In this document: positions 11,778 to 42,045 of the stretch, one piece after another
How the letters are laid out: each line of letters opens with the position of its first letter
Position numbering within the stretch: position 1 is the stretch's first letter
Origin: Nitrososphaeraceae archaeon
GTDB taxonomy: Archaea; Thermoproteota; Nitrososphaeria; Nitrososphaerales; Nitrososphaeraceae
NCBI GenBank assembly: GCA_035297365.1
Contig: DATGZA010000062.1
Coordinates: 1-64,000 of the forward strand
Reading direction: 5' to 3'
DNA: 64,000 bases
The notes under the pieces: model-generated
Seen by the model: the letters and a program-made list of their open reading frames with translations, nothing else
Database searches by the model: none
Told to the model about the DNA's origin: nothing
Position numbers and translations under genes: made by a program

Positions 11778-11846
11778 TTGAATTCCAATATCTAATTAAT
11801 TTAAGAATAGATAAATTTGGCTGTTTTAAATTGAAATTTAATTGCT

Positions 11847-12005
11847 GCGGGGATTGCCAAGCCTGGCCAACGGCGCAGGTCTATCAATCGTCCTTCGATG
11901 GTTGATGGTGCGAAGCTTAGAATGAATTGGTCAGCCTATTATCAATGATCATATCCTATAACCCTGTTCCTCAGGGATTCGTGGGTTCAAATCCCACTCC
12001 CCGCA
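11847..12005 (+). tRNA. tRNA-Leu(TAG) with two introns (11880-11914 and about 11922-11960)
   Basis: Acceptor GCGGGGA/TCCCCGC plus A73 and a long variable arm. Removing both inserts restores CAGGG-CTTAGAA-CCCTG. The first intron has a clean BHB motif. Confidence 0.9.
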
Positions 12006-20137: not shown

Positions 20138-20292
20138 GTTCGTACCTTCATTAGTTCAATGTCACCTGATGTACAGTTTTGTGAACCCCCGATGTGAGCA
20201 TGTAAAAGTTCCTTTGCTTTTTCCTTCGATAGCTTTTCCATAGAAATATGGCCACATTTTTTACACGTAATGATATAACTCCACTTAATCAA
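20134..20292 (-). CDS. Small putative zinc-binding protein
   Basis: TCKKCG...HAH...C. A TTG start at 20292 is preferred over the ORF-track start because a TATA-like element lies about 30 nt upstream. Confidence 0.55.
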   Translation of the reverse strand: MIKWSYIITCKKCGHISMEKLSKEKAKELLHAHIGGSQNCTSGDIELMKVRT

Positions 20293-21424
20293 ATGTCTAA
20301 CACTAAGATTGTTTTGTATTATCCTTATAACTGTTATAGAAATAATTGAATACCAGAAAAGATAATTATCTGTGAACATATGAAAACCTATCTGTATAAT
20401 GTTACTTTCATTTCCGTTTAGCCTTCTTTAGCTATATAGTCCCCTGCAACACCGTTCTTTACAACATTTACAACAGGGTCAACTAGAAACCATTATCAGT
20501 AGTCTTCCTGACGATTTGATATTGTTTGTTATCTACTAATATTGTTTGTTATATATGCATCATCTTTCGAAATTCAATCTCTGCTTCCTTGTTCTTGTTT
20601 ATTGTTATCCTGACTGGAACCTGGCAGTATTATCTTAAAACATTCCGTAAATTACTGCTTGCAATTATGGGATTCGTCTGGATTGAGTTTGTATTTTCTG
20701 CAAGGTTCAATAATTGTAATATTTATAAAGTCATTTAGTCACAATCCTTTTCTTGTCTTCTGCTGCTTGTACAACTCACTATAATTGCAGTAACAGTAGT
20801 GAAAACAACCTATCTCAAAGAGTTCTAATTAAAAGGATTCATACCCAGGTAACATCGTGTTGGTATCAATCATTATCTACTCTTAAAATGTTCCTTATAA
20901 AATAAATATTAAATAATTCTCTACCTTTGAGGAATTGAAGCAGATAGAAAGTATATTTATATTGATAGACAATTTGTTATTTATAGGAAGTAATGCGATA
21001 TGAATTTTACATACCTGTCATATGCTATTTATTTTGTTATATAGTGAACTTATTCCTTTACAGTCATCGAATATGGAAAAATAAGAGATGATATTCTAAA
21101 CCAGTATGGTTTATAATCTAGAATAAGAATCATGTATAGCATTTGAAACGACCTTTACTCATGAATTCAATCCTCTTATTTAATCTAAAAAATTCATTTT
21201 TGGAATATTATTTTAATTAAACAAACCAGAAAATATATCGAGAAAAATGTTCTTCTAGCAGTCAGGTGTAACTATTGAGCACATTCTATCAGAAAACATG
21301 GTTAATGATGCATTTATTTAAATTCAGTTCTAGTGTATTTAATTTCCTATTCTCAGGTAATTTATCTTGATATAAGTATAATAATGTGGAACACCTATTA
21401 TAACGTATAGGATAGTGAAAAAAA

Positions 21425-29176: not shown

Positions 29177-30151
29177 TTACTTTTGAAGACCGTTGATTCC
29201 TTGGGCAACTAGGATGGAATAACAACCAAGACCGCATTTTTCGCATATAGGTTTTAATCCTTTATTATCTGCACTTCCTATACAACAAGGCTGTTTGACT
29301 CTTCCCATGTGATCTAGAGAAATAATAGCCCATGAAGGACATTGAACAGGGGTGGTTTCGACCCCTCCCCAGTTACCTTTCATCAAAGATATTTGTTTCT
29401 CAGAATTCACTATATAATCAGGATATATTCGTTTCATTGATATAATTTCATCTACGACACTATCACGAATGTCCCCAAAAGACAACCAAAGAGGATCATC
29501 TTTTATAAATGGAGTATGAAATTGAAATCCTATTTTGTTTACTTTTCCCCTCCATTCTTGTGCTAAAGGAATTGCGGTTGTATAATTAAGAGAATTGATG
29601 GTCATAGTAATCCATATATCCTTCCAAGCAGGTTTTCCTTTCCTGACTCCTACTTTTTCGATATATTCTAATATGTTGTTTCTTGTCTTTGAATAGGATC
29701 CTTTTCCCCTGATACTGTCATGAACTTCTTCTGTTCCATCAAGTGAGACCCAATAAAAATATAGATTCTCAAACTTCTTTAAAGGAAACGTACCATTCGT
29801 GACCACACAAACCCTTCTAGGCATTTCATTACAGAACAATTGTATGATATCAGGCCTTAACAATGGTTCACCGCCAACGAGGGTAACCACAAAGATATTT
29901 TGCTTTTTAAATGTATTATCAATTATCTTTTTCCAATCCTCAACACCTAGATCATGTTCCTCCTTTCTATTAAGCCACCAGTAGCAATGAGAACAATGTA
30001 AATTGCAAACATTATTGATATCTACCGAACCATATAATGCCTGTTTAGAATGAAATACCTTTATTCCTATAATTTTTTTTATGAAATTAAGATGAAATGG
30101 CATCTCGTGTATTAAATCAGTTATTCCACGGCCATAGATTAGATCTACCAT
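29177..30151 (-). CDS. Radical SAM protein with Cys-rich C-terminal (SPASM/twitch-like) region
   Basis: CNLHCSHC, GGEPLLR, TNG and SLDG..HD.IRG motifs; C-terminal C...CC...CxxCxxxC. Confidence 0.92.
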   Translation of the reverse strand: MVDLIYGRGITDLIHEMPFHLNFIKKIIGIKVFHSKQALYGSVDINNVCNLHCSHCYWWLNRKEEHDLGVEDWKKIIDNTFKKQNIFVVTLVGGEPLLRPDIIQLFCNEMPRRVCVVTNGTFPLKKFENLYFYWVSLDGTEEVHDSIRGKGSYSKTRNNILEYIEKVGVRKGKPAWKDIWITMTINSLNYTTAIPLAQEWRGKVNKIGFQFHTPFIKDDPLWLSFGDIRDSVVDEIISMKRIYPDYIVNSEKQISLMKGNWGGVETTPVQCPSWAIISLDHMGRVKQPCCIGSADNKGLKPICEKCGLGCYSILVAQGINGLQK

Positions 30152-40743: not shown

Positions 40744-40842
40744 TAGCCCGGCCCAGATTCGAACTGGGGTCAAAGGCTCCAAAGGCCTTTATGCTTGGCC
40801 GCTACACTCGGCGGAAAAATATATTTTTCCCTCCACCGGGCT
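40744..40842 (-). tRNA. tRNA-Gln(TTG) with a 26-nt non-canonical intron at position 10/11 (40807-40832)
   Basis: Acceptor AGCCCGG/CCGGGCT, anticodon arm AAGGC-CTTTGGA-GCCTT, T-loop GTTCGAATC. The insert AGGGAAAAATATATTTTTCCGCCGAG forms a BHB-type structure. Confidence 0.92.
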
Positions 40843-40890
40843 TCCGGGCATTATTTCGTATTAATAACTTGAATTATAATGTTATGAATT

Positions 40891-42045
40891 TCAAATAAAT
40901 TTCTTAAATTGTACTATTGGGTCTTCCATACTATCTATAAATTTCAAAGATTTTTCACACAATCTTTTTTGAAATCCCGATACTTTGTATTTTTTTAGTT
41001 TATCATTATTTTTAAAATCTTTTTTCTCGTTTTTAATTTTAGAGAAAATGTTGTGTGTATATCTAGTTAACTCTTTTTCATTTCTTATTTTCTTTACAAA
41101 TCCGCATCTTATAAGAAAGTTTTCCACGTAAAAGCTAATAGGTGCAATAGAAATGACTGGTTTACCAAGCAATGCTGCCTCCGCGCTCATAGTACCTCCA
41201 GCACCAATAAACAGATCTATCTCTCTTAATAACGAGGTTCCATCCACCACATTTTCGAGTATTTGAACTTTATTTTCATATCTCTGTTTGAAAAAATCTA
41301 TTTGATCTTGGTATCTTCCAAGAAGTAATACCTTAGAGTAAAGGGAAAAATTTTTAACAATACTATCAATCAACGCTACAGAATTTTTCAGATTTTTGTT
41401 ATCTGTTATATAGGATGCCTTTGCTTCTTCCGGCCTAATTAAGATAGTGAATTGGTTTTTTTTATTTTTTTTCGATATTGTATTTGACCATCCTCCACAC
41501 TCTTTAATTTTTTCCCTCTCTCTTTTTACCCAAACAACAGGGTCAATTGCTCTATATCTGGTAATTTTTTCTCTATTGATTCCTAGATTTAACCATGCTT
41601 TATATGGTATAATCCATGGACAGAAAAGCCGGTCACAAATTGGGACACTTAGTTTCGCTACAGCCAATGCATGTGGAGAATCATTGAAGATATAGTGTTT
41701 TACACCTAATCCAAACGATACTCTTGAAGCTTCTGGGGAGGAAAAGGAGACAGTTAGATCAGGTTCAAAGGAGTTAATAATGTCTGCAAGTTTTCGAATT
41801 CTTTCACTGCTAGCTACTAATTTTTCATATCTGTCCTTTCCTCCATGTTTGCCAACTATTTTTATTCTTACTTTTTTTATTTTTGCTAACTCTATTGCCT
41901 CTCTGTAGTCTCGTCCAGTACAGAATATTTCATGTCCAGATTCTTCCAGATCTTCAACGAAATATTTGAAGAACATTATCTGTTTGGGGGTAAGAATATC
42001 GAACCAGATTCTCAAGTTATTGTGATAGTTACCATTACTTATCAA
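40891..42045 (-). CDS. DUF354 family protein (GT-B-like)
   Basis: IWFDILTPKQ..FF, GKHGG, RPEE..ASY and GAGGTM..EAALLG.P motifs. Confidence 0.85.
   Translation of the reverse strand: MISNGNYHNNLRIWFDILTPKQIMFFKYFVEDLEESGHEIFCTGRDYREAIELAKIKKVRIKIVGKHGGKDRYEKLVASSERIRKLADIINSFEPDLTVSFSSPEASRVSFGLGVKHYIFNDSPHALAVAKLSVPICDRLFCPWIIPYKAWLNLGINREKITRYRAIDPVVWVKREREKIKECGGWSNTISKKNKKNQFTILIRPEEAKASYITDNKNLKNSVALIDSIVKNFSLYSKVLLLGRYQDQIDFFKQRYENKVQILENVVDGTSLLREIDLFIGAGGTMSAEAALLGKPVISIAPISFYVENFLIRCGFVKKIRNEKELTRYTHNIFSKIKNEKKDFKNNDKLKKYKVSGFQKRLCEKSLKFIDSMEDPIVQFKKFI

Follow-up and report, generated by a model that had tools for sequence, protein, structure and literature searches.

A conserved leader copy of the acceptor-stem 5' strand accompanies acceptor-proximal introns in archaeal tRNA-Gln genes and may act as a surrogate strand for splicing

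Non-canonical BHB introns, which lie away from position 37/38 of the tRNA, are known from Crenarchaeota and Thaumarchaeota with an (alpha-beta)2 splicing endonuclease, and the available part of PMC8450103 reports many of them in Thaumarchaeota. The removal of nested or multiple introns can be ordered, one BHB forming only after another intron has left (Sugahara 2007; Tocchini-Valentini 2009). In the split and permuted tRNAs of Nanoarchaeum, Caldivirga, Thermofilum and red algae, pairing between leader and trailer makes the endonuclease substrate, according to the available parts of PMC4090602 and PMC4033280; the BHB is built there from the leader and the trailer, which EndA then removes. The intron of the tRNA-Gln(UUG) gene analyzed here belongs to the first of these groups, as judged by its 3-nt bulges, 4-bp helix, inner hairpin, location away from 37/38 and the two EndA-domain genes of the genome, whereas the new part lies outside the intron, in a leader element that is predicted to take the 3' acceptor strand. 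As in the ordered removal of nested introns, the outcome would depend on which of two mutually exclusive precursor folds is adopted (PMC3978253, available part); the switch there is the excision of another intron, whereas the switch proposed for tRNA-Gln is a leader strand. As in the split and permuted tRNAs (as far as the available parts of the same sources describe them), sequence outside the mature tRNA would pair to create a splicing substrate. The tRNA-Gln leader, however, would form a plain helix of 6-8 bp with the mature 3' strand, without bulges and not at the splice site, and its removal by RNase P is proposed. No BHB of the leader-trailer kind was found at this locus, where the pairing of the leader with mature nt 66-73 is uninterrupted.

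A competing strand also decides which helix forms in attenuators and riboswitches (anti-terminator logic), and leader-trailer pairing hinders RNase P in bacteria and yeast. The logic of the putative tRNA-Gln decoy is similar to that of attenuators and riboswitches, but it does not belong to the same family, as it has no ligand, ribosome or terminator and its competing strand duplicates a segment of the mature RNA. Replacement of the acceptor 5' strand by a leader strand was not described in the full-text literature searched, including the available parts of PMC4090602, PMC8450103, PMC3978253, PMC12397907, PMC4033280, PMC3218864 and bioRxiv 10.64898/2026.10.13.758758, and novelty is limited to that scope.

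The gene is located on the minus strand of a 64,000-nt stretch of DNA from a Nitrososphaeraceae archaeon (the window), and its parts are listed in Table 1. Reading of the minus strand confirmed the original prediction that a GCCCGG hexamer identical to tRNA nt 2-7 sits 1 nt ahead of the tRNA. The TATA-like TTATAAT of that prediction is also present, but had been placed one base off, at 40874-40880 instead of 40879-40873; it ends 24 nt before the hexamer, and the intervening 23 bases are A+T-rich. Among relatives, the spacer between leader copy and tRNA nt 1 is 0-8 nt long. Because of the 10/11 intron, the true 5' end of the tRNA was missed by both ARAGORN, which wrongly put it at 40816, and the Rfam tRNA model, whose match covers model positions 9-63 only. 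The tRNA is flanked by a gene for a DUF354 protein upstream and by a gene for argininosuccinate lyase downstream, the latter convergent on the tRNA. The DUF354 gene (40891-42045, minus) is directly upstream and syntenic in most families of the order (loci L001-L223), and its protein has a conserved MEDP motif at the C-terminus. A sub-threshold match to a CRISPR repeat family of Rfam (23.4 bits, cut-off 35) inside the end of this gene, at 40923-40949 on the plus strand, was taken as chance. Elsewhere in the window, at 11846-12005 (plus), there is a long-arm tRNA with large inserts and the acceptor strands GCGGGGA and TCCCCGC, which ARAGORN mislabelled as tRNA-Tyr(ata) with a 76-nt intron.

Table 1. 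Parts of the tRNA-Gln(UUG) locus, in window coordinates
Feature	Coordinates	Strand	Basis
TATA-like box TTATAAT, tRNA-Gln(UUG) promoter	40879-40873	-	sequence reading
Putative leader surrogate strand GCCCGG; same as tRNA nt 2-7, complementary to nt 66-71	40849-40844	-	
Spacer, 1 nt (A), between surrogate and tRNA nt 1	40843	-	
Exon 1, tRNA-Gln(UUG) nt 1-10 (AGCCCGGTGG)	40842-40833	-	read by hand
tRNA nt 5-8 (CGGU), one strand of the BHB central helix	40838-40835	-	
BHB intron at 10/11, 26 nt	40832-40807	-	
Intron GCCG, partner of nt 5-8, after the inner hairpin	40812-40809	-	
Exon 2, tRNA nt 11-73	40806-40744	-	
3' acceptor strand, nt 66-72	40751-40745	-	
CTTTT after the discriminator; likely T-run terminator (inferred role)	40743-40739	-	

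The BHB of tRNA-Gln(UUG), as read by hand, has a central 4-bp helix (H) between nt 5-8 and GCCG of the intron, the bulges GG/A and AG/U (the slash marks the predicted cut, behind the second bulge nucleotide of each strand), and an A/U-rich inner hairpin beyond the 5' bulge; it thus contains the two 3-nt bulges and the 4-bp helix that are required of an archaeal BHB intron. The outer helix of a strict hBHBh' motif was not found beside the 3' bulge, where a single pair (G12-C4) is possible, so that the motif is of the relaxed form. In 94 of the 99 insert-bearing Gln genes analyzed, H is paired at all four positions, and the bulge sequences are conserved. Pairs were counted on 52 UUG sequences out of 63, after exclusion of the 11 that have additional introns (the covarying sequences among them); H was 99% paired, and compensatory changes were present at 6/6 pairs of the inner helix. 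When the insert was removed in silico, ARAGORN called a tRNA-Gln of nt 1-73 in 53/63 UUG genes, compared with 0/63 before removal; the other 10 UUG genes and all 36 CUG genes carry further introns. The genome has two genes with EndA domains (PF01974 matches in open frames of 188 and 132 aa), which by sequence are consistent with alpha and beta subunits of a splicing endonuclease, and an archaeal RNase P RNA (165.7 bits). Since H takes acceptor nt 5-8, of which nt 5-7 are needed by both structures, BHB and acceptor stem are mutually exclusive.

Within the genome, whose G+C content is 30.5%, GCCCGG occurs 39 times on both strands of 2.52 Mb, and at this locus alone do two copies lie within 10 nt. 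In the 30 other full-length tRNA genes, no leader contains a G+C-containing 6-mer able to pair with nt 66-71 of the same gene, and one leader has a weak U/G-rich match. A search by T arms gave about 45 tRNA genes, of which only the two for tRNA-Gln carry an intron before nt 15, and these two alone have such a leader. A chance origin of the leader copy is very unlikely. The second gene, for tRNA-Gln(CUG), lies outside the window on contig C14 (~20160-20340, minus; L051/L052) and was missed by ARAGORN and by the full-length Rfam search. Three introns interrupt it, one in the D loop, one at 37/38 and one at 10/11 that has the same central helix as that of the UUG gene. Its leader contains UAGCUCG, which pairs with A73 to C67 via one G.U. 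The motif is kept in 30/30 family genomes compared, where the variants UAGUCCG and UAGCUUGG still pair. CUG leaders pair in a shifted register, and A73 is paired by the putative decoy in 34 of the 36 CUG genes.

A more extensive comparison was based on 61 relatives, searched with each of the two Gln genes, on 20 regions from other families of the order, on 31 relatives from one divergent family, and on a pattern scan of public genomes that gave at least 119 tRNA-Gln loci from many archaeal groups. The resulting 202 distinct tRNA-Gln gene sequences were classified by whether the D arm follows directly after nt 10, and a leader copy was defined as a 6-mer within 12 nt that pairs with any 6-nt window of nt 66-73. 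According to the original prediction, the leader duplicate should co-occur with the 10/11 intron, and intron-bearing orthologs lacking it would speak against the idea. The expected association was found: a leader copy is present in 98/99 sequences with a 10/11 insert (63 UUG and 36 CUG), the exception (L026) having a copy broken by one extra U, versus 13/103 sequences without insert under this lax rule. Nine of these 13 need two to four G.U pairs, and only four of the 103 (L097, L132, L171 and L175, from G+C-rich genomes) pair with at most one. The element was found in none of eight Gln genes whose introns lie only 3' of nt 15, and in no other intron-bearing tRNA of this genome. Two side observations concern intron-less tRNA-Gln genes: in the G+C-rich Nitrososphaerales record L095, an exact GCCCGG stands 14 nt upstream, which may be chance or a relic, and L116, a Haloferax chromosome record, has a 13-nt copy of the tRNA-Gln start ~60 nt upstream, which may be an integration relic.

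Intron and element occur together in families f1, f4, f6, f8, f9, f11, f14 and f15 and also, as judged by eye, in f19, and both are missing from f5, f7, f10, f12, f13, f16, f17 and f18. L104 shares a homologous promoter and an identical aligned exon with L094 and L122, but its intron has been lost precisely and its leader copy has an internal 5-nt deletion, which on sequence comparison points to a recent joint loss of intron and copy. On a maximum-likelihood tree of the syntenic upstream protein (24 rows, a single gene with long branches and a midpoint root), the joint state changes three times, at least two of the changes being forced by well-supported branches. As the sequences are related, the co-occurrence counts overstate independence, and the independent events appear to be few: about 2-3 changes, L104 and two covariation events.

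The original prediction also held that the leader should covary with the tRNA, and such changes were found in one family of the order. In genera g27 and g36 of f15 (four species), pair 6:67 is C:G, compared with G:C in other lineages; the leader there is GCCCCG and the intron partner is GCGG, and the tRNA-Gln(CUG) gene of one g27/g36 genome has the same 6:67 C:G, leader and intron change. In four tRNA-Gln(CUG) genes of genus g35, also of f15, U6 stands opposite G67 and the intron partner tracks U6 (GCAG), whereas the leader retains C opposite G67 and is fully complementary to nt 66-73. These sequences indicate that the leader tracks the 3' strand and not the intron; nor does it copy the 5' strand, and gene conversion is therefore disfavored. 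Because the acceptor stem is almost invariant, such covariation tests are clean but few in number. The remaining variants of the leader all have U in place of C, which still pairs with G, and no G-to-A change was seen. Counts of pairs in the leader copies follow in part from the detection rule, which itself demands pairing. In the 52 UUG sequences, the leader helix is 92.6% paired and slid controls are 23-53% paired; the unpaired cells of the leader helix belong to rows of differing spacer length, which MAFFT left ungapped.

Energy models point in the same direction. In the minimum free energy structure given by RNAfold for the tRNA-Gln(UUG) precursor, the hexamer is paired to nt 66-71, and the intron to nt 5-8. 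Partition-function probabilities are 0.995 for the BHB helix and 0.003 for the acceptor stem when the native leader is present, compared with 0.01 and 0.98, respectively, when it is absent or replaced by an A/U leader. A/U-only leaders are the cleaner control, since the outcome with shuffled G+C hexamers was mixed, many of these finding another register in which to pair with the 3' strand. The original claim that the leader pairs with the 3' acceptor strand and thereby frees nt 5-8 for the BHB is thus supported by co-occurrence, covariation and these folds. Among all 99 Gln genes, the BHB helix exceeds a probability of 0.5 in none without a leader or with an all-A leader and in 49 with the native leader (46/63 UUG and 3/36 CUG); the median in CUG genes is 0.034 with the native leader versus 0.001. 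Constrained folds of unspliced precursors favor decoy plus BHB in 51/62 UUG genes (median -3.3 kcal/mol) and 5/36 CUG genes. The modelled leader always moves the balance in the predicted direction, but is not always dominant at equilibrium. A further part of the prediction, that the true acceptor stem re-forms after splicing, was not reproduced by the two-dimensional energy model: after in-silico splicing, the decoy helix is still preferred in 51/62 UUG genes and the true stem in 11/62, so that return to the true stem would need tertiary structure or irreversible capture by RNase P.

With regard to the transcription start, the usual distance from the centre of an archaeal TATA box to the start site is ~26-27 nt. 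In 48/52 UUG and 22/23 CUG genes with a match to the motif list, the first base of a TATA-like hexamer lies 29-31 nt ahead of the leader G opposite C71; the list was ad hoc and gave no match in 20/95 genes. Given the usual spacing, this distance puts the predicted start at or just before the decoy hexamer, and we infer from sequence that the transcript begins there.

A second tRNA family was found when five other genomes were screened for truncated tRNA matches and ten matches were examined. The tRNA-Ser(UGA) genes concerned (L243-L253) have an intron at 8/9, whose central helix uses acceptor nt 3-6. All 11 intron-bearing sequences, from three genera of f9 and one genome of f12, have a leader copy of their own 5' strand 2-7 nt before nt 1; the copies are CGCCGG, GCUGGGA or UGCCGGGA, and the intron sequences are widely different. 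The leader copy is absent from three intron-less Ser(UGA) orthologues, and in a fourth, L261 of a G+C-rich genome, a 6-mer that pairs with one G.U is located 5 nt upstream. In the models, the acceptor stem has a probability of at least 0.97 in 11/11 sequences without the leader and of at most 0.005 in six with it, and the BHB helix rises to 0.2-0.79 in 7/11 with the leader.

Two related oddities were also observed. Read by hand only, L233 (G050 contig C1, ~707000-707170) has an apparent intron within the acceptor stem, at 4/5, and its BHB helix would be formed by leader nt -2 and -1 plus tRNA nt 1-2 with GCCG at the intron's 3' end, this GCCG being a copy of nt 1-4. The tRNA-Arg(CCU) gene on contig C14 of the present genome (~29864-29960, plus) has a D-loop intron that holds a second copy of a D-stem strand (GCGC), and a similar gene is present in L239; the position of the copy implies that the intron, and not the leader, supplies the BHB pairing partner in that case.

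Comparison and modelling together show that the element is under selection, that it is tied to acceptor-proximal introns and that it tracks the 3' strand. On the same basis, it is probable that the leader element is a selected RNA strand whose pairing with the 3' acceptor strand permits the BHB. The hexamer would then be a cis-encoded surrogate, or decoy, for the 5' strand of the acceptor stem, a G+C-rich stem of 7 bp that would otherwise block the pairing of nt 5-8 with the intron needed for the BHB. Transcription would probably start at the hexamer or immediately upstream of it. Before splicing, the hexamer of the precursor would pair with nt 66-71 to form a pseudo-acceptor helix atop the T arm, and nt 5-8, left free, would form the BHB, to be cut by a splicing endonuclease of the heterotetramer type. 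After ligation, the decoy would be displaced by the true 5' strand and RNase P would trim the 7-8-nt leader, 5' maturation thus following splicing. A kinetic version is also plausible, in which the BHB would form before the 3' strand is transcribed and the free decoy would then capture this strand and stop it from invading the BHB. We are less certain that the element determines the order in which splicing and RNase P cleavage take place than that it has this pairing role.

Several other explanations should be weighed against this one. Covariation with the 3' strand would suit any function that needs the leader helix, and the helix might therefore be a quality-control lock that does not serve the BHB and instead blocks premature RNase P cleavage, CCA addition or aminoacylation, or shields the 3' end from exonucleases. 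The frequent extension of the decoy to the discriminator, seen in the pairing of A73 in most CUG genes, agrees with such a role, as does the modelling of Gln(CUG) and some Ser(UGA) precursors, in which the BHB is not dominant even with the leader. A lock would, however, be expected also where introns lie 3' of nt 15, yet neither the eight Gln genes of that kind nor any other intron-bearing tRNA here has the element, which accompanies introns at 8/9 and 10/11, where BHB and acceptor stem are in competition. We consider a lock of this kind rather unlikely as the explanation, although lock and BHB functions are compatible with each other. As for the motif acting at the level of DNA or protein, as an initiator element or factor binding site for example, instead of as an RNA pairing partner, its position at the predicted transcription start, 29-31 nt from the start of the TATA-like hexamer, is what would be expected. 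But GCCCGG, GCCCCG, AGCUCG and CGCCGG differ in exactly such a way that complementarity to the 3' strand of each tRNA is maintained, the distance to nt 1 varies within 0-8 nt, and the motif is absent from the leaders of the 30 other tRNA genes of the genome, all of which makes a signal of this type highly improbable.

Replication slippage can create direct repeats such as the two copies, which are 8 nt apart, and the loss of 5 nt from the copy in L104 would fit slippage as well. A small tandem duplication that simply persisted as a neutral relic is nevertheless very unlikely: the copy has been kept in nine families, in which the other leader positions, the flanks of the promoter and the intron are no longer recognizably similar, and the substitutions seen in it are all compatible with pairing. 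In two genes its change accompanied that of nt 67, and where the 5' strand has U6 the copy departs from it. The copy also goes missing with the intron (only the lax look-alikes described above, four of them with at most one G.U, remain among intron-less sequences), and an unrelated tRNA, that for Ser, has its own matching copy. Three further readings were rejected. The upstream copy is not the real 5' strand, as the base preceding it varies (T, C, A or G) and would fail to pair with U72, and as the copy lacks a following U8-N9; nor is the repeat a target-site duplication of the intron, as both copies lie on the same side of it; and pairing of the leader with the intron is excluded by genus g35.

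Non-canonical tRNA introns have been catalogued by their BHB motif, and how the BHB beats overlapping stable cloverleaf helices has rarely been asked. The proposed decoy would be a concrete, sequence-encoded answer for acceptor-proximal introns. Gene finders could also use the leader copy as a new signal of where a disrupted tRNA gene truly starts, and it would offer a simple design rule for engineered BHB substrates. If the proposal is true, it would give these precursors a defined processing order with a defined intermediate, a spliced tRNA that still has its leader. By a small measure, we lean towards the wider view that archaeal pre-tRNA leaders encode a strand surrogate that acts as an intramolecular RNA chaperone, with splicing first and RNase P second as a by-product, and that this is a general rule in Nitrososphaerales for BHB introns that compete with the acceptor stem (to date those of Gln UUG, Gln CUG and Ser UGA). 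Such surrogates may be what lets introns settle close to the acceptor stem.
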